57,941 nucleotides of DNA. It comes from Candidatus Dormibacteraceae bacterium. Its GTDB lineage: Bacteria > Chloroflexota > Dormibacteria > Dormibacterales > Dormibacteraceae. This document shows, one piece after another, positions 1 to 43,935 of the stretch (within the stretch, counting starts at the first letter, position 1; every line of letters starts with the position of its first letter). The DNA lies in contig JBGPEO010000001.1 in assembly GCA_041482895.1 (NCBI GenBank), forward strand, positions 1 to 57,941. Reading direction: 5' to 3'. A program made the translations under genes and the position numbers. The notes under the pieces were generated by a model that worked only from the letters and a program-made list of their open reading frames with translations, searched no databases and was not told the DNA's origin.

Positions 1-740
1 ACGACGGCTGAGTCGATGCCGTCGGGCCCGACCAGCAACGGCAGGGTCAGGATGAGGTCCGCGACGAAGCGGGCCATCGGCCCGACCTGGCTGCGTGGAT
101 CGGTGAGCCCGCCGGGGAGCGCGTAAGCGCCGGTGCTGGGGATGAGGCCCGTCGTCGGCTTGAGAGCTGCGATGCCACAGTAGTGCGCAGGCATGCGGAT
201 GCTGCCGCCCGAGTCGCTGCCCAGGCCGAGCGGAGAGCCGCCCGCGGCGATGATCGCCGCCTCGCCGCTGCTGCTGGCGCCCGGCGAGCGCGCGATGTCG
301 TACGGGTTGCGCGTCCCTCCGTGCAGCGAGTTCCAGCTGTCGCCGCCGACACCTCCAGGCGGGCAGAGCGTCTTTCCGATCAAGATCGCGCCCGCCGCGC
401 GCATCCGGGCAACGACGGTGGCGTCCCGATCGGGGATGTTGCTCCGCAACATGCGAAGCCCGGCGGTGGTCGGAAGCCCGGCGGTGTCGAAGATGTCTTT
501 GGCGGTGAAGGGCACGCCGTGCAGCGGGCCGAGCACGGCCTTCCGATTGCTCCCCTTGCGATCGGCCGCGCGCGCCTGTTTGAGCGCGCTCTCGCCCGTG
601 GCGAAGACCACCGCGTTGAGTCGCGGGTTGACCGTGTGAATGTGCTCGAGGTGCGCCCGCACCACCTCGAGCGAGGAAACCTGTTTCGTCCGAATCGCAC
701 GCGCCAGCCAGCCGGCGGGCGCGCCGATGATGTCTCTCAT
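1..740 (-). CDS. Amidase-signature family amidase (partial; 3' end beyond window edge)
   Basis: The minus-strand frame is open to position 1, so it is absent from the ORF track. My translation from ATG at 740 reads MRDIIGAPAGWLARAIRTKQVSSLEVV...GKTLCPPGG...SPGASSSGEAAIIAAGGSPLGLGSDSGGSIRMPAHYCGIAALKPT, which carries the amidase signature (Gly/Ser-rich block plus GSDxGGSIRxP). Confidence 0.85.
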   Translation of the reverse strand, partial: MRDIIGAPAGWLARAIRTKQVSSLEVVRAHLEHIHTVNPRLNAVVFATGESALKQARAADRKGSNRKAVLGPLHGVPFTAKDIFDTAGLPTTAGLRMLRSNIPDRDATVVARMRAAGAILIGKTLCPPGGVGGDSWNSLHGGTRNPYDIARSPGASSSGEAAIIAAGGSPLGLGSDSGGSIRMPAHYCGIAALKPTTGLIPSTGAYALPGGLTDPRSQVGPMARFVADLILTLPLLVGPDGIDSAV

Positions 741-975
741 CAGTGCCTCGACCCTGCGGTCCGCCGCATATTCGCGGCATCGGCGGCCGGAGCCAAGGAG
801 ACGACGAGCACGTGAGGGAGCGCTTCGCGTAGATGCGTGACCGAACGCGAGCAGGAGTCGACGCAGGCTTCAGCGCCCGTCCGGGGTCCCCGCGAAATCG
901 ACGATTTCGCGGGGTGGGCAGGCGCCCGACCGCCTGGGCCGCGAAGATGCAAGGAACGTCGGGGTCGAGGCACTG
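741..975 (-). promoter_or_regulatory. Structured 5' leader element, copy 1 (candidate cis-regulatory RNA; MITE not excluded)
   Basis: Shares two long near-identical blocks with 42644..42903. A 14-bp perfect closing helix pairs RNA 5' CAGUGCCUCGACCC with GGGUCGAGGCACUG immediately before the amidase AUG, and this helix contains the GAGG Shine-Dalgarno. There is an internal 12-13 bp hairpin CCCCGCGAAAUCG/CGAUUUCGCGGGG (888..914). Confidence 0.45.
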
Positions 976-990
976 TCACGGGGAGTAACG

Positions 991-1701
991 CTATACCTTG
1001 TCTCCGGGGTTGATATCCAGCACTTTGACACCGGGGCCGACAAGGTCCTGTAGCTCTTTTGGCCGGCCGGCGAGTGCCGGGAACGTGCCGAAATGCATGG
1101 GCACCACCGTCTTGACGCCAAGCAGCGAGACTGCTTTGGCGGCGCGGTCCGGTCCCATCGTGTAGAAGCCGCCGATCGGCAGGAATGCCACGTCGAACTC
1201 GCTCAGCTCGGAGATGAGCGCCATGTCGCCAAACACGTCGGTGTCGCCCGCGAAGTAGATGGTGAAACCGTTTTCGAACTCGATCACCAGGCCGCTGGCA
1301 TTCCCGCCGTAGATGATCTTGTCGCCGTCCGAGATGCCGCAGCTGTGCTCGGCGTGCACCAACGTGACCTTGATGCCGTCCACGTCGACAGTGCCGCCCG
1401 TGTTGATGCCCATGATGCTGTTGCCGTCAACCCCCTTCGACCCGAGCCAGGCGCTGATCTCGAAGTTGGTCACGATCTTGGGATTGGTCGCCTTCGCGAT
1501 CTCGAGCGCGTCGTGGACATGGTCGAAATGACCATGCGTGATGAGCATGAGGTCGCAGCTGTCGACCTTCTTCAGGGCGTCCGTCGCGACCGGGTTGTTC
1601 ATGACCCAGGGATCGATGTAGATGGTCTTTCCCTTGGCGCTCCGGACCTTCCAGGTCCCATGCCCGATCCACGTGAAGCTGACCTCATTGTTGAGCGCCA
1701 T
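991..1701 (-). CDS. UPF0173-type metal-dependent hydrolase (MBL fold)
   Basis: Inner part of ORF 991..1926, starting at MALNNEVSFTWIGHGTWKV. It has HGHFDH and HAEHS motifs typical of beta-lactamase-fold hydrolases. GGGAGG lies 6-7 nt upstream of the ATG at 1701. Confidence 0.85.
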   Translation of the reverse strand: MALNNEVSFTWIGHGTWKVRSAKGKTIYIDPWVMNNPVATDALKKVDSCDLMLITHGHFDHVHDALEIAKATNPKIVTNFEISAWLGSKGVDGNSIMGINTGGTVDVDGIKVTLVHAEHSCGISDGDKIIYGGNASGLVIEFENGFTIYFAGDTDVFGDMALISELSEFDVAFLPIGGFYTMGPDRAAKAVSLLGVKTVVPMHFGTFPALAGRPKELQDLVGPGVKVLDINPGDKV

Positions 1702-15829: not shown

Positions 15830-16097
15830 AACGACACAGGCCTGGCTGGAACTCGCGCAGGCGCAGGTGCTCCATCTCGCCGCGCAGATAGCGCGCCTTG
15901 ATGCCCAGACCCTTGATGCCTTTCGCTGTTTCGTACGGGAACCTGTAGAGCTTTCCCGAATCGACCAGCAGGCAGACGGAGAGCTTCTCGCCGTCCTTCT
16001 CGATCACGTGCTTGTAGCACGGCACCGTGCGGCGCGCAATCTCCATCTTCTTGAAGCCGCCCACCCTGCCGGCGAGCACGTCCATCGGGCTTCGCAT
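15801..16097 (-). CDS. Hypothetical protein (98 aa), unrecognised family
   Basis: Its composition is unlike the shadow ORFs (K/E/Y-rich: FKKMEIARRTVPCYKHVIEKDGEKLSVCLLVDSGKLYRFPYETAKGIKGLGIKARYL). It overlaps the next ORF by 29 nt. Confidence 0.5.
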   Translation of the reverse strand: MRSPMDVLAGRVGGFKKMEIARRTVPCYKHVIEKDGEKLSVCLLVDSGKLYRFPYETAKGIKGLGIKARYLRGEMEHLRLREFQPGLCRYVERADKAV

Positions 16098-16114
16098 GTT
16101 CGAAATCCTAGTGT

Positions 16115-16133
16115 CCCGCTGCTTTGCAGCGGG
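16115..16133 (-). terminator. Stem-loop after the radical SAM gene (weak terminator or processing hairpin)
   Basis: CCCGCTGC-ttt-GCAGCGGG, an 8-bp stem 4 nt after the stop at 16138. The U-tract on the minus strand is poor. Confidence 0.35.
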
Positions 16134-16137
16134 CCCT

Positions 16138-17058
16138 TCAGTTGAGAAGTGAGAGCTGCTCGGGCTCAGGCGGAGGTTTCAGGATGACCTGGCGCCGGTC
16201 CGACACTCCGTGAACCGCTTGGAGACGGGACACGGTCTTCATCGTCGTCTCGCCGAAGGCAGGTGGAAGGTAGGCGCGCTGCTGGTACGCCTTCTCGTAG
16301 CGAGGCACCAGCTCCGGCCAGTGCCTGGCCAGGACCGACATGAAATGCTCGCGTGTTCCGTCCTTGAGGTGAAGCATCCCGGCCCAGAGCCCCGTTGCGC
16401 CGGCGGCTCTCGCGGCTTTGATCACGGCCTCGAGACGATCCGGCCGGTCGGAGAGCCCCGGCAGGATCGGCGCCAAGCCGACGCCGACGTCGATACCGGC
16501 CGAGACCAGCTTCTCGATCGCGCGAAGCCGCTGTCTTGGATGCGCCGTGCCCGGCTCGGTCCGCCGCCAGACCTCGTCGTCGACTGTGGGGATGCTGAAG
16601 GTGATGTGAAGGTCCGCGCGTCGCGCGAGGTCTGAGAGCACGTCGATGTCGCGAACGATCATCGGGCCACGAGTGATCATCGCCGTGGGATTGGAGAAGT
16701 CGCGCAGCACCTCCAGGCACCTACGGGTCAGCTTGTAACGCCCCTCGGCGGGCTGGTAGGGATCTGTGGCGGCGCCAATCACCACCGTCTCTCTGTGCCA
16801 TGACTTCCGCGAAAGCTCGCCGCGCAGGACGCCGGCCACGTTCACCTTGATTCGAATCGCGCGGCCGTATCGATCATCGGAGGGCCGGTCAGCCCGAAGC
16901 TCGAAAGCGCGGACGTAACAGAACGCACACCGGTGCTCGCAGCCGGTGTATGGGTTGAGCGACCAGCCAAAACCCATGCCCTTGACCGGGTTCAGCGCGG
17001 ACTTGCACTGCACCTCGAGGTACTCCACGTCGGCGAGGCGAGGCTCGGGAGATTCCAT
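16138..17058 (-). CDS. Radical SAM protein, SplB-like (COG1533 'DNA repair photolyase' family)
   Basis: LNPYTGCEHRCAFCYVRAF gives the CxxxCxxC radical SAM cluster. Length and layout match the Rv2578c-like family. Confidence 0.85.
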   Translation of the reverse strand: MESPEPRLADVEYLEVQCKSALNPVKGMGFGWSLNPYTGCEHRCAFCYVRAFELRADRPSDDRYGRAIRIKVNVAGVLRGELSRKSWHRETVVIGAATDPYQPAEGRYKLTRRCLEVLRDFSNPTAMITRGPMIVRDIDVLSDLARRADLHITFSIPTVDDEVWRRTEPGTAHPRQRLRAIEKLVSAGIDVGVGLAPILPGLSDRPDRLEAVIKAARAAGATGLWAGMLHLKDGTREHFMSVLARHWPELVPRYEKAYQQRAYLPPAFGETTMKTVSRLQAVHGVSDRRQVILKPPPEPEQLSLLN

Positions 17059-42064: not shown

Positions 42065-42643
42065 CTAGTGGCGGCGGACCAGGTCCAGGAACTCCGCGCG
42101 CGTGCGCGGGTCTTTGCGGAACGTGCCGAGCATGCACGACGTGATCATCTGGCCGCCAGGCTTCTCGACTCCGCGCATCTCCATGCAGAGGTGACGCGCC
42201 TCGACCACGACCCCCACGCCCTTCGGGGTCAGCGTCCCGTTGAGCGCCTCCGCGATCTCCTTCGTCATCCGCTCCTGAAGCTGTAACCGGTGTGCGAAGA
42301 CGCCGACGAGGCGCGGGATCTTGCTCAGCCCCACCACCTTGCCGCGTGGCAGGTAGCCCACGTGGCAGGTGCCAAAAAACGGCAGCATATGGTGCTCGCA
42401 CAGGCTGTAGAAGGGGATGTCCTTGACCACGACCATCTCGTCGTAGTCCTGGTCGAACACCGCATCCGAGACGACATCCTCGGGCTTGACGCCGTAGCCG
42501 TCGGTGAGCTGGCGCAGCGCCCTCGAGACGCGCTCCGGGGTCGCCCTCAAGCCCTGGCGCTCCGGGTCCTCACCCAGCTCGGCCAGCAACGACTCGACCA
42601 GGTCGGGTATCTGGTCACCTGAGCGGGGCTTGCTCTTGGCCAT
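42065..42643 (-). CDS. folE: GTP cyclohydrolase I
   Basis: Inner ATG at 42643 (MAKSKPRSGDQ...). It has GLRATPERV, FYSLCEHHMLPFFG, KIPRLV and QERMT. Confidence 0.9.
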   Translation of the reverse strand: MAKSKPRSGDQIPDLVESLLAELGEDPERQGLRATPERVSRALRQLTDGYGVKPEDVVSDAVFDQDYDEMVVVKDIPFYSLCEHHMLPFFGTCHVGYLPRGKVVGLSKIPRLVGVFAHRLQLQERMTKEIAEALNGTLTPKGVGVVVEARHLCMEMRGVEKPGGQMITSCMLGTFRKDPRTRAEFLDLVRRH

Positions 42644-42903
42644 GCTAGTGCCTCGGTCCCCGGGGACCGCCGCATATTTCGCGGCATCGGCGGCCGGAGC
42701 CAAGGAGAGGGTGGCGCAAAGAGGAGCGCCCCCTGCGGGATCCCTGCGCCGTGGTTGCGCGGGGGCGGCGACGCGGCGCCGGGCCCCTCGACGCAGGCTT
42801 CAGCGCCGCCCGGGGTCCCCGCGAAATCGCAGATTTCGTGGGGTGGGCATGCGCCCGGCCGCCTAGGCCGCGAAGATGCAAGGGACCCGGGGGCTGAGGC
42901 ACT
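42644..42903 (-). promoter_or_regulatory. Structured 5' leader element, copy 2 (candidate cis-regulatory RNA; MITE not excluded)
   Basis: Same conserved blocks as 741..975, in the same orientation relative to the downstream gene, with a longer variable insert. The closing helix AGUGCCUC.../...GAGGCACU ends 3 nt before the folE AUG and contains GAGG. Confidence 0.45.
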
Positions 42904-42927
42904 CGTGAATGCTCACACAATTGATGG

Positions 42928-43935
42928 GTGGATGCGATCCCGGCGGCACAGGTCCTCTCGGAGATCGGGTACCTGCTGCGCCAGGACCCCGACGAGAAGT
43001 TTCGCGCCAAGGCGTTCTCGGCCGCGGCATGGTCGCTGGCGATCGAACGGCCTGACCTCGAGTCGCTCCACAGCCGGAACGAGCTGACCTCGCTCGAGGG
43101 GGTGGGCGCCGGCATCGCCAAGGTTATCGCCGAGGTGCTCGAGACAGGCCAGAGCCGCTACCTCGAAAGACTGCGCGAGCAGATGAAGCAGCCCGCCCGA
43201 GAAGACGAGTCGGTGCTCGACTTCAGCAAGTACAAGGGCGACGTCCACTCCCACTCGACCTGGAGCGACGGCAAGTCGACGATGTTCGACATGGCCAGGG
43301 GCGCCGAAGCGATGGGCTACATGTATCTCGGAGTCACCGACCACTCCCCGCGGATCAAGGTCGTCAATGGCCTTGACGCCGACCGGCTGCTCGCGCAATC
43401 GCGCGAGATGGCTGAGGTGCAGGCCCAGGTGCCCGGCGTTGCGCTGCTACAAGGCATCGAGGTGGACATCCTCGAGGACGGGTCGCTCGACCTTCCAGAC
43501 ATGGTCCTGGAGCTGCTCGACGTGGTGATCGCGTCGCCGCACGTGAAGCTCCGCCAGGAACCGGCGGCGATGACGGAACGAATGCTGCGCGCGGTCTCGC
43601 ACCCACACGTCGACGTGATCGGCCATCCGACCGGACGCCGCCCGGGTTCGCGCGAGGGAGCGAACTACGACTTCGAAGCGGTCTTCAAAGAGGCGGCGCG
43701 GAACCACGTGGCGCTGGAGATCGACTGCGACCCGGCGCGCATGGACCTGTCCCCGGAGATGGCGCGGTTTGCGCTGGAGCTGGGATGCAACTTCAGCCTG
43801 GACGCCGACGCCCACGCGCCGGCCGAGTTCGCCTACGTCCCGATGGGAATGTGGATGGCGCGGCGGGCCGGCATCCCGATGGACCGCATCCTGAACTTTC
43901 TGCCGCTGGACGAGCTCACCGACGCTCTGAGCTGA
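42928..43935 (+). CDS. HhH + PHP-domain phosphoesterase (PolX C-terminal-like; no polymerase palm domain)
   Basis: The N-terminal helix-hairpin-helix region (LTSLEGVGAGIAKVIAEVLETG) is followed by PHP motifs (GDVHSHSTWSDG, GVTDHS, IASPH, GHPTGR, LDADAH). Confidence 0.8.
   Translation: MDAIPAAQVLSEIGYLLRQDPDEKFRAKAFSAAAWSLAIERPDLESLHSRNELTSLEGVGAGIAKVIAEVLETGQSRYLERLREQMKQPAREDESVLDFSKYKGDVHSHSTWSDGKSTMFDMARGAEAMGYMYLGVTDHSPRIKVVNGLDADRLLAQSREMAEVQAQVPGVALLQGIEVDILEDGSLDLPDMVLELLDVVIASPHVKLRQEPAAMTERMLRAVSHPHVDVIGHPTGRRPGSREGANYDFEAVFKEAARNHVALEIDCDPARMDLSPEMARFALELGCNFSLDADAHAPAEFAYVPMGMWMARRAGIPMDRILNFLPLDELTDALS

Follow-up and report, generated by a model that had tools for sequence, protein, structure and literature searches.

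The window, a stretch of 57,941 nucleotides from a Candidatus Dormibacteraceae bacterium (contig JBGPEO010000001.1), holds two minus-strand copies of one element, each directly ahead of a gene on the same strand. Copy A (42647..42903; 257 nt, long form; nhmmer 4.6e-35) precedes folE, which encodes GTP cyclohydrolase I (42065..42643, minus strand; 192 aa; Pfam PF01227, 9.4e-75). It is sandwiched between the putative folE promoter, an extended -10 box TGTGAGCAT at 42909..42917 (minus strand), and the folE start codon. Specifically, the element begins 5 nt past the box, whose hexamer GAGCAT (42914-42909) ends 6 nt ahead of the GTG of copy A, and stops 3 nt short of the ATG (42643-42641). A divergent gene with HHH_8 and PHP domains (42928..43935, plus strand; Pfam) starts 24 nt off the 5' end of copy A and also lies next to folE in 7/7 relatives. 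Copy B (742..974; 233 nt, medium form; 1.9e-52) precedes the 5' part of an amidase gene (1..740, minus strand; Pfam PF01425, 3.5e-70) that runs past the window edge, and the amidase ATG (740-738) overlaps a TGA arising at the end of the copy. Upstream of copy B is a -10-like hexamer, TAGCGT (988..993, minus strand), a candidate promoter element that lies 8 nt ahead of an in-frame GTG (979-977) and overlaps an upstream MBL-fold gene at its stop codon; the same layout is repeated in the two orthologous filled counterparts of copy B (L051 and L027). A scan of both copies for strict sigma-70 and terminator consensus sequences yielded neither a promoter nor a relevant terminator. An internal promoter candidate, TTGGCU-N17-GAAUAU, was dropped because the strict sigma-70 scan found no promoter.

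The original prediction had described two co-oriented copies ahead of folE and the amidase gene, with near-identical blocks on either side of a non-homologous middle of unequal length, and this description was confirmed, with the exact limits given above. Between the two copies, 103 of 117 columns are identical in the 5' block and 55 of 61 in the 3' block (60 nt), and the middles (80 versus 57 nt; 40/82 columns) are essentially unrelated. Conserved stretches of 28 nt and 19 nt each occur exactly twice in the window, where shuffled sequences lead one to expect 0.00 and 0.04 occurrences. The pairing of GCAUCUUCGCGG with CCGCGAAUAUGC that had been proposed does exist, as a portion of a much longer terminal stem that spans each window copy from its first to its last nucleotide (AGUGCCUC...GAGGCACU). 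The minimum free energies of the two copies are -161.8 and -140 kcal/mol (z-scores, -5.4 and -7.2). What had been overlooked is that both blocks belong to a single palindromic unit, as its arms and core, and that this unit is one of a family of many copies, has sites both filled and empty, and contains a stop-free frame.

Extent and fold of the repeat family

We searched for the family by the exact 22-mer CUCCUUGGCUCCGGCCGCCGAU, which consists of a junction and the inner 3' strand of the terminal stem P1 (42686..42707, minus strand, in copy A), and by nhmmer in 744 kb of genome loci. The exact 22-mer gave 98 loci, nearly all of them in Dormibacterota MAGs, and the 744 kb contain 83 full-length copies, a sample ascertained through the exact core 22-mer. 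An independent metagenome scan by a 5' anchor returned at least 120 loci and at least 69 non-redundant copies, and just a quarter to a third or so of unbiased copies retain the 22-mer. Units are 190-260 nt long, in short, medium, and long forms, and throughout 1.5 Mb of loci they are single palindromic units with no tandem copies. Plasmid and phage collections gave no match to the repeat, and nothing relevant emerged from literature searches on repeats or leaderless mRNAs in Dormibacterota. Several bins assigned to other phyla contain the repeat. Judged by its sequence, the element is a previously undescribed, dispersed, rod-folding repeat of the uncultured soil phylum Dormibacterota, non-coding in appearance.

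Listing further copies with their downstream genes, as the original prediction had suggested, did reveal a multi-copy family, but the downstream genes proved unrelated. They fall into more than 40 unrelated housekeeping gene families and include ispH, hom, thrC, purF, tpiA, glpX, gltX, relA/spoT, atpC, tmk, trmD, and coaE. Orthologous sites are kept across species at hom, purF, ispH, relA, glpX, and a glmM-like gene.

In the family fold, P1 (about 45 bp, the arms pairing over about 45-50 nt) joins the 5' and 3' ends and closes a branched core made up of P2, a junction CUGAAGCC, a P3/P4 domain, and a junction CUCCUUGGCU, with optional hairpins; the terminal inverted repeats are AGUGUCCCG...CGGGACACU. 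The P3/P4 domain occurs across the family in two alternative self-complementary versions, forms A and B. All of these parts can be placed on the minus strand of copy A. Its P1, supported by the minimum free energy fold and family covariation, has a 5' arm AGUGCCUCAGCCCCCGGGUCCCUUGCAUCUUCGCGGCCUAGGCGGCCGG at 42854..42903 and a 3' arm at 42647..42698 that ends in CGAGGCACU and contains a Shine-Dalgarno (SD)-like GAGG 7-10 nt ahead of the folE ATG. P2 and its optional extension, taken from the fold and the alignment, occupy 42803..42854; this stretch includes a near-perfect hairpin, CCCCACGAAAUC-UGC-GAUUUCGCGGGG (42817-42843), that short-form copies do not have, and P2 base pairs show compensation in two other copies (L059 and L033b). 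The alignment further places the invariant junction CUGAAGCC at 42796..42803 and the variable P3/P4 domain (80 nt) at 42708..42787. This domain is of form B, with an enlarged inner hairpin, and that of copy B is of form A. Selection for an SD sequence in the 3' arm was considered and rejected, with only a weak asymmetry seen (28 versus 15 of 83 copies).

A conserved, structured leader element, co-oriented with both genes, had been predicted, and its helices were found to covary across the family. In the alignment, 95.6% of cells are paired, and 19 pairs are changed on both sides, compared with 8.7 +/- 1.5 after shuffling (0/500 shuffles reach 19) and at most 13 in slid controls. The termini vary and covary and are not the most conserved portion, the junction sequences are invariant, and the core helices contain conserved G.U pairs (such as the G.U of P3 form A). 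Among mismatches of the outer stem, A.C outnumbers G.U by 67 to 12, which is the opposite of the prediction for a selected sense-strand RNA helix; correction templated at the DNA level within a quasipalindrome could give rise to covariation without RNA function. As had been anticipated, no Rfam family scored above its gathering score in the window or in 19 further copies, and relaxed searches gave noise only (best E values of 0.7 to 8, on the wrong strand or as fragments).

Position, insertion, and reading frame

The repeat typically ends 0-5 nt ahead of a start codon. A co-oriented gene lies downstream in 64 of 75 copies, most starts falling at -2 to +5 nt, and the gene-facing orientation is favored about 4:1. 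The original prediction had named scatter in both orientations and at arbitrary distances from genes as the mark of a MITE; placement is mostly tight and co-oriented, but about one-fifth of copies are reversed relative to the nearest gene start, only some of these with an open frame, and some copies lie between convergent genes. At the other end, 25 copies overlap an upstream stop codon by nt 1-2, and TANNNT boxes concentrate 5-9 nt ahead of nt 1. Ordinary genes here have TANNNT boxes 6-10 nt ahead of the start codon (99 cases among 459 ORFs). The 5' end of a repeat that follows a -10 box lies where these genomes usually place a leaderless start codon.

Two sites could be compared in filled and empty states. 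Ahead of folE, all seven close relatives lack the repeat and have a spacer of 11-26 nt, arranged as TGTGAGCAT-N7-start with the box ending 7 nt ahead of the start codon; by this arrangement, folE of the relatives is a plain, apparently leaderless gene. At the hom-thrC junction, L034 carries the repeat, and L070 and L082 have an empty spacer of 7-10 nt. We found no 2-4 nt direct repeat above shuffled expectation at any boundary offset, and no duplication at the folE and thrC insertions. Nor was an autonomous partner or transposase with the same termini noticed, incidentally, in about 1.5 Mb of loci, and IS110 genes near folE in L102 and L105 have no similarity to the repeat. The term mobile therefore rests on the two filled/empty comparisons. 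An origin of the arms from target sequence was ruled out, as the empty sites at folE and thrC are unrelated to the arms. A possible stump and a possible footprint of the repeat were also observed.

Nucleotides 2-4 of the repeat are GTG, and the frame that they open has a consistent layout. The length is 3n+2 in 53/83 copies, all major size classes included, and the frame is open in 58/83. Its first stop falls at -8 to +1 of the gene start in 37/57 copies (3/57 and 1/57 for the other frames), a result replicated in metagenome copies (25/40 versus 6 and 3), and 14 of 15 RTGA overlaps are in the GTG frame. The 5' junctions take the forms TAGTG, TAAGTG, and TGAGTG, and the 3' junctions are TAG, TGA, or TAA, or else ATGA, GTGA, or TGATG. 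In copy A, the frame (42645..42902, minus strand) runs from GTG 42902-42900 through 85 stop-free codons to TAG 42647-42645, with the folE ATG one nucleotide further on. In copy B (740..979, minus strand), GTG 973-971 represents element nt 2-4, the GTG at 979-977 is in the same frame, and the first stop, TGA 742-740, forms a TGATG overlap with the amidase ATG. A variant subfamily keeps the layout of stop/start, ORF, and stop/start in 9/10 copies despite a quite different P1 and even ATG starts. Fusion with the downstream frame is not usual: a stop precedes the downstream start, and an upstream stop lies at the 5' boundary. Altogether, this relay is intact in about 65-70% of the forward copies that adjoin a start; the remaining forward copies need another route, and often a -10-like box separates the element from the start.

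Readings of the repeat

We think it probable that the element is a mobile, or recently mobile, palindromic repeat that is tolerated, or used, because translation would be relayed to the start codon that it displaces. The repeat would be transcribed as part of the mRNA, and its GTG would substitute for the displaced start codon, with initiation either leaderless or via a stop/start overlap such as TAGTG. A ribosome would then translate the stop-free frame across the whole repeat, melting the rod, terminate at a stop built from the last T of the repeat and two bases of the flank (or within an ATGA, GTGA, or TGATG overlap), and re-initiate at the true gene start. The encoded peptide would itself be irrelevant. 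When free of ribosomes, the rod would bury the 5' end and the region just ahead of the start codon. For the repeat, the start of transcription, its translation, the re-initiation, and a regulatory benefit, if there is one, are all inferred. Several observations weigh against this relay: it does not account for the conservation of the roughly 150-nt core, it is intact in only the fraction of forward copies given above, about one-fifth of copies are reversed, A.C exceeds G.U in the outer stem, and the GTG, being paired within P1, should work badly as a leaderless start when the rod is fully formed.

Core conservation is one point in favor of a reading that we consider unlikely, in which the element is a host cis-regulatory RNA module and not a selfish insertion, its core serving as a protein site or switch and its rod gating many housekeeping genes. 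Such a module might be a translation-coupled attenuator or latch, a stabilizer that protects the 5' end, or an RNase III processing ("punctuation") site yielding near-leaderless mRNAs. In the 22-mer-ascertained sample, any two copies are 87% identical over the core and orthologous copies are 88-98% identical, and adjoining genes are saturated at third codon positions; the core is conserved about as well as the first and second codon positions of neighboring genes. Identity within genomes equals that between genomes (0.869 versus 0.864), and concerted evolution or recent within-genome bursts were rejected for this reason. The invariant junctions, the sites kept across species, and the paired 5' and 3' ends, which resemble rRNA processing stems, also favor a host module. 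However, these conservation estimates are biased by selection through the exact core 22-mer, folE and thrC of close relatives lack the element, G.U pairs are not in excess, and processing alone needs no frame continuity. The module and the relay are partly compatible and not mutually exclusive. In a further reading, which we regard as quite unlikely, the element is more than tolerated and is a phylum-specific expression device: a latch on housekeeping genes that depends on ribosome traffic, spreads without duplication, and has its core bound by a dedicated protein or enzyme. The structured, translated relay would separate dozens of housekeeping genes from their promoter or upstream cistron. 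If translation stopped, the rod would close and conceal the 5' end and start region, and the mRNA would be stored; such a global translational latch would fit a dormancy-prone organism rich in leaderless mRNA.

Very unlikely, in our estimation, is a palindrome acting purely at the DNA level, of the REP/REPIN or MITE type, kept by a DNA enzyme or hairpin-templated repair with no RNA or translational role; the pattern of positions and frames would then simply be a record of the insertions that a compact genome tolerates. The terminal inverted repeats, the many copies, the filled and empty sites, outer-stem A.C at least as frequent as G.U, the reverse-oriented copies and those between convergent genes, and the possible stump and footprint are all in keeping with this. 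Against it stand the missing target-site duplication, termini that vary and covary (the opposite of transposase-bound inverted repeats), and conserved core G.U pairs, which favor the sense strand. Moreover, survival filtering itself implies that frame matters for expression, and the DNA-level reading therefore largely merges into the relay.

A small gene encoding a functional protein of 64-86 aa was rejected as highly improbable. The frame is open and its start and stop codons are in coupling positions, but variability shows no 3-periodicity and no excess at third positions (0.379, 0.347, and 0.362 for the three codon positions), codon GC bias is lacking (GC1/GC2/GC3 is 0.69/0.70/0.74 where real genes here have a GC3 above 0.8), and a Pfam search with the through-frame peptide (one frame-2 example contains LHLRGLGGRAPAALKPAS) gave no match. 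Frameshifted copies keep the total length and not the peptide, internal +1/-1 pairs being tolerated although most of the peptide is altered. A metabolite riboswitch controlling folE and the amidase gene through a pterin-, folate-, or GTP-related ligand, as the original prediction had entertained, is effectively refuted: the leader is large, structured, and covarying and sequesters an SD-like GAGG in P1 of the two window copies, but the downstream genes come from unrelated pathways, the element is absent ahead of folE in 7/7 relatives, Rfam gave no match (including THF, THF-II/folE motif, ZTP, and preQ1), and a closing stem of about 45 bp is much too stable for ligand-dependent switching. Group I/II introns, integron attC sites, IS200/IS605, retrons, and bridge RNAs were dropped because the defining size, conserved termini, adjacent enzyme gene, and array context are missing.

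Relation to known repeats and significance

Some of the nearest parallels are repeats that keep or contact reading frames. MIRUs are described as intergenic repeats within operons, co-transcribed and numbering about 40-50 in each genome, with small ORFs that overlap the stop and start codons of flanking genes and with sites filled or empty between species (PMC3184786, which cites Supply et al. 1997). The ORF ends of the Dormibacterota repeat likewise overlap flanking stop and start codons, in frame in 37/57 copies. MIRUs differ in being direct repeats of 40-100 bp, often in tandem, without a long terminal stem or conserved branched core, with tetranucleotide direct repeats at filled sites, and in a different phylum; by description, then, they are set apart from single palindromes of 190-260 nt. 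We know of no described take-over of leaderless start positions by MIRUs. RPEs are summarized as mobile Rickettsia palindromes of 105-146 bp whose frame is kept open and whose insertion is tolerated (PMC3184786, citing Ogata et al. 2000). The Dormibacterota repeat may share this tolerance through translation, and it is also palindromic with an open frame. RPEs, however, insert in frame inside protein-coding genes and join the protein, whereas the Dormibacterota repeat is intergenic, larger, and a separate start-to-stop unit with a conserved multi-helix core.

Like DDE-derived MITEs, the repeat has terminal inverted repeats, dispersed copies, and filled and empty orthologous sites. Correia elements of Neisseria and MITEs of the ERIC/IRU type are described as multi-copy elements with inverted repeats, 100-170 bp long and co-transcribed with neighboring genes, whose RNA hairpins can affect expression (PMC3184786). 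Correia elements come with a TA duplication, end in conserved 26-bp terminal repeats, and occur in either orientation; the Dormibacterota repeat has no duplication, covarying termini, the gene-facing bias, a 3' end at start codons, and a through-frame. Hairpins of the Correia/ERIC type are processed by RNases. With REPs, BIMEs, and REPINs, the repeat shares an extragenic and also intercistronic position, a palindromic form, hairpin covariation, and the lack of target-site duplication. REP elements usually lie at gene 3' ends and are untranslated; they are linked to a RAYT gene, and their doublets measure about 100 nt. They are given as 20-40 nt long with a GTAG or CGTC tag (PMC3733652), unlike the branched Dormibacterota repeat, which starts with AGUG and lies at gene 5' ends. 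Finally, attenuators and coupled uORFs also have a short leader ORF whose translation sets downstream RNA folding and expression of the next gene; the Dormibacterota repeat has no pathway-specific regulatory codons, places the same sequence before unrelated genes, has no canonical terminator that we found, and ends its ORF on the downstream start codon.

These results remove a false lead, in that no new folate or GTP riboswitch lies here, and they document an abundant, undescribed repeat family in a phylum known from MAGs alone. The repeat would be a marker of Dormibacterota contigs in soil metagenomes, and gene callers are prone to take its frame for a hypothetical protein or to misplace the start codons of the genes that follow. 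It would also represent an unusual kind of harmless insertion, one that occupies a leaderless start or a stop/start junction and passes translation to the displaced gene. If confirmed, this would offer a natural system for leaderless initiation, termination-reinitiation, and the unwinding of very stable RNA by ribosomes.

A palindromic repeat in the window and across Dormibacterota

The original prediction of one element at two minus-strand loci held: copies lie at 42647-42903 (257 nt, minus strand, before folE) and 742-974 (233 nt, minus strand, before the amidase gene), and the existence of the element is confirmed. As described, two near-identical blocks (103 of 117 columns identical in the 5' block, 55 of 61 in the 3' block) enclose unrelated middles of 80 and 57 nt, and the downstream genes indeed encode GTP cyclohydrolase I and an amidase. 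Each conserved stretch has exactly two occurrences in the window, against approximately zero expected. Each copy begins and ends in inverted repeats (AGUGCCUC...GAGGCACU), and the predicted fold of the whole unit is a rod that branches inside (-161.8 and -140 kcal/mol; z-scores -5.4 and -7.2). Consistent with the original failure to recognise a known riboswitch class in it, we found zero Rfam matches at curated thresholds and noise below them, both for these copies and for 19 others from 18 loci.

The element is a repeat family rather than a leader particular to folE. A 22-mer taken from its 3' block matched 98 stretches in species-representative genomes, nearly all of them in Candidatus Dormibacterota MAGs (soil bins named "Chloroflexi bacterium CF_xx" among them), with several per MAG. 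Searched with a profile, these stretches (744 kb) yielded 83 copies of full length, along with partial and variant ones. Lengths fall mainly into three classes, about 194, 233-236 and 257-260 nt, set apart by whether hairpin P2 is extended and by how large the P3/P4 domain is. A 5'-block word, scanned independently against metagenome contigs, gave at least 120 loci and at least 69 further non-redundant copies, only 25 of those 69 carrying the 22-mer among the matches listed. Copies not used for ascertainment occur at a density of approximately one per 80-100 kb, which amounts to tens in each genome; collections of plasmids and phages gave zero copies. Ten repeat-carrying contigs from a single soil-MAG catalogue (L022, L030, L050, L051, L061, L063, L068, L071, L077 and L078) are labelled as other taxa, namely Eisenbacteria, Nitrosopolaris (an archaeon), Verrucomicrobiia, Gemmatimonadales and Sulfotelmatobacter. 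L051 is an orthologue of the window's amidase locus, so these contigs are probably mis-binned Dormibacterota.

Behind the copies lie ordinary housekeeping genes drawn from a wide range of pathways, for example ispH, hom, thrC, purF, a glmM-like mutase, tmk, atpC, pckA, tpiA, glpX, gltX, relA/spoT, coaE, trmD, selB, liv transporters and acyl-CoA dehydrogenases. This excludes a ligand-specific riboswitch, and the earlier suggestion of a pterin, folate or GTP ligand is rejected.

Gene starts and the frame through the repeat

With genes called from codon-position GC, a co-oriented gene followed the 3' end of the element in 64 of the 75 copies that could be assessed (shadow-ORF miscalls account for several exceptions), and its first in-frame start codon lay mostly -2 to +5 nt from the terminal CACU. 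The stop codon of a co-oriented upstream gene overlaps element nucleotides 1-2 in 25 copies (T/AG, TA/A or TG/A, the slash marking the element boundary), and approximately 33 copies have a divergent neighbour starting 11-35 nt off. No target-site duplication was found at the element boundaries. Across the genome sample and the metagenome matches listed, forward-only adjacency to gene starts outnumbered reverse-only adjacency by 77 to 20; reverse copies lacking the frame follow stop codons, lie where two genes converge, or keep a distance of 47 nt or more from the next start. A 192-nt subclass in metagenome loci (e.g., L145, L208, L118, L133, L123 and L126) is typically flanked by CAT-TAG/AGUG, which places an opposite-strand gene start 3 nt from its 5' end. 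This layout mirrors the usual arrangement, and in five such copies the reverse strand has an open frame.

Among 459 coding-like ORFs, 99 have a TANNNT box whose end lies 6-10 nt upstream of an in-frame start codon (background 2-4 per position), which points to leaderless or near-leaderless mRNAs being common. Shine-Dalgarno (SD) motifs are few in the window and the collected loci; examples of the box layout are window genes with TAGACT-N10-11-ATG and, separately, the folE relatives L099-L105. Such mRNAs appear to be the norm in these Dormibacterota genomes, with -10-like boxes at no fewer than a fifth of coding-like ORFs. Where the element precedes a first gene, TANNNT boxes form a single cluster within the 60 nt upstream, 5-9 nt before nucleotide 1, and the leftover nucleotides on both sides of the element sum to 7-12 nt, the normal box-to-start distance.

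Nucleotides 2-4 of the element are GTG (positions 1-4: A 74%, G 91%, T 81%, G 92%). Length is 3n+2 in 53 of 83 copies, with every major size class among them, and the GTG frame is stop-free inside the element in 58 of 83. Approximately 33 copies have this frame closed by a stop made from the last T and two flanking bases (TAG, TGA or TAA); in others the stop comes 3-6 nt further on and overlaps the next start (ATGA, GTGA or TGATG). For the 57 copies with a confident adjacent start, the first stop of the GTG frame fell -8 to +1 nt from that start in 37, versus 3 and 1 for the other frames, and the metagenome replicated this (25 of 40 versus 6 and 3, among the matches listed). RTGA overlaps were in the GTG frame in 14 of 15 cases (approximately 12 independent loci). 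A relay-type frame, running through the element to the stop/start junction, was present in 39/63 forward and 2/18 reverse copies with an adjacent start in the genome sample, and in 26/36 and 9/28, respectively, among the metagenome matches listed. A variant subfamily keeps the start-frame-stop layout in 9 of 10 copies despite its other arm sequence, and in two of those nine the start codon differs too (ATG). In one locus (L029, 5049-5118), a 10-nt tandem duplication in the 3' arm (GCGGCGAAUCU twice) produces a 246-nt unit, the only one in which the GTGA junction and the element GTG are in different frames.

We reject a conserved peptide as the basis of the frame. The three codon positions are equally variable (0.379, 0.347 and 0.362). 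GC content by codon position is flat (0.69, 0.70 and 0.74), a Pfam search of the frame peptide gave zero matches, and copies with an early +1 insertion and a late -1 deletion keep their total length with most of the unit in another frame.

The reading with the best support is a palindromic repeat that moves, or once moved, and has specialised in the 5' boundaries of genes in a compact genome rich in leaderless mRNAs. On this reading it is tolerated, possibly exploited, because it leads with a start codon and continues in a stop-free 3n+2 frame. Translation would enter at the element's first codon and be delivered to the stop/start junction at its end; transcription start, translation and re-initiation are steps that we infer from geometry and statistics, the whole account being computational. 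The main rival, which is not exclusive of this reading, is a host regulatory role: a latch or attenuator gated by translation, protection of the 5' end, or punctuation by RNase III.

Stem anatomy and covariation

In an alignment of 31 short-form copies, the 47 predicted pairs were 95.6% paired. Covariation was borne out, with 19 pairs changed on both sides versus 8.7 +/- 1.5 in shuffles (0/500 as high) and a maximum of 13 in slid controls. It is located almost entirely in the outer 20 bp of P1, the terminal stem pairing the element ends, and in P4, a small hairpin of the enclosed core (CGCAUC/GAUGCG replaced by GCACC/GGUGC, GCGUC/GACGC or GCAGC/GCUGC). P2 (GCGCC/GGCGC), which bears an optional 40-nt hairpin, is compensated in loci L059 and L033b, P3 has two alternative self-complementary versions, and the junctions CUGAAGCC and CUCCUUGGCU are invariant. 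The variant subfamily keeps the core with a completely different P1 sequence.

Family-wide, A.C/C.A mismatches in the outer 15 bp of P1 far outnumber G.U (67 versus 12), which is contrary to the prediction for a sense-strand RNA helix under selection. Read on the sense strand they are G-to-A changes, and most fall in the 3' arm (GGGAC to GAGAC or AGGAC); a weak excess of SD-like tetramers in that arm (28 versus 15 of 83) may account for part of the asymmetry. Templated correction in a DNA quasipalindrome could be an alternative source of the apparent compensation. A purely DNA-level repeat is a possible origin of the covariation, but a frame filter would still be needed to explain the positions.

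Filled and empty sites, age and described analogues

FolE proteins 86-94% identical to that of the window are common, and the divergent PHP/HHH neighbour is shared at folE in 7/7 contigs examined. These seven relatives have no profile trace of the element at folE and a spacer of only 11-26 nt. Their upstream region reads ...TTGTGTGA(G/C)(C/G)AT-N7-(A/G)TG GC, in which exactly 7 nt separate an extended -10 box from the start codon; that of the window reads ...TTGTGTGAGCAT-TCACG-[257-nt element]-AGC-ATG GCC. Comparing the two layouts places the element GTG, 6 nt past the box, in the old start-codon slot, and the frame of this copy ends in TAG one nucleotide before the displaced ATG. The hom-thrC junction is filled in L034 (TAA-GCGC-[element]-GACG-ATG) and empty in L070 (TAG-CCAGTGCCCG-ATG) and L082 (TAG-CAAUCCC-GTG). 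Together, these sites show that copies were gained or lost among close relatives with clean boundaries, and parsimony favours a gain of the folE copy in the window's lineage.

The empty L070 spacer (approximately 1809-1821) reads CCAGUGCCCG, resembling the element's first 8 nt (AGUGCCCG); this could be the footprint of a lost copy or a preferred target. A 7-bp hairpin at window positions 16097-16140 (AGUGUCCCGCUGC-UUUG-CAGCGGG) bears the terminus typical of the family (AGUGUCCCG / CGGGACACU on the other strand) and immediately precedes a minus-strand gene, the ATG of which (16097) is 7 nt past a TAGGAT box. This hairpin could be what remains of a deleted copy, or else a minimal relative. Directly downstream of folE, L102 (3124-4317) and L105 (2109-3302) carry an IS110-family transposase gene (DEDD_Tnp_IS110 and Transposase_20) that is not in the window; neither gene has any sequence relation to the repeat.

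Orthologous copies (e.g., before hom, purF, ispH, relA and glpX) are 88-98% identical in the core and 60-90% in the outer arms. Identity of the adjoining genes falls to 49-69% at third codon positions, against 87-97% at the first two. Similarity among paralogues of one genome does not exceed that between copies of different genomes (0.869 versus 0.864), which gives no sign of concerted evolution or recent bursts. All these figures are inflated by ascertainment on the core 22-mer; "second" copies free of that bias vary from well preserved to fragments.

The closest analogues, in the passages of PMC3184786 that describe them, are MIRUs, whose ORFs overlap flanking stop and start codons, RPEs, which are in-frame palindromes, and the Correia and ERIC elements, which are co-transcribed hairpin MITEs; none, as described there, unites all features of the Dormibacterota repeat. 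Interspersed palindromic repeats are already known as a kind; what is new is one with an unusual translational design, and the folE site is a natural before-and-after example.
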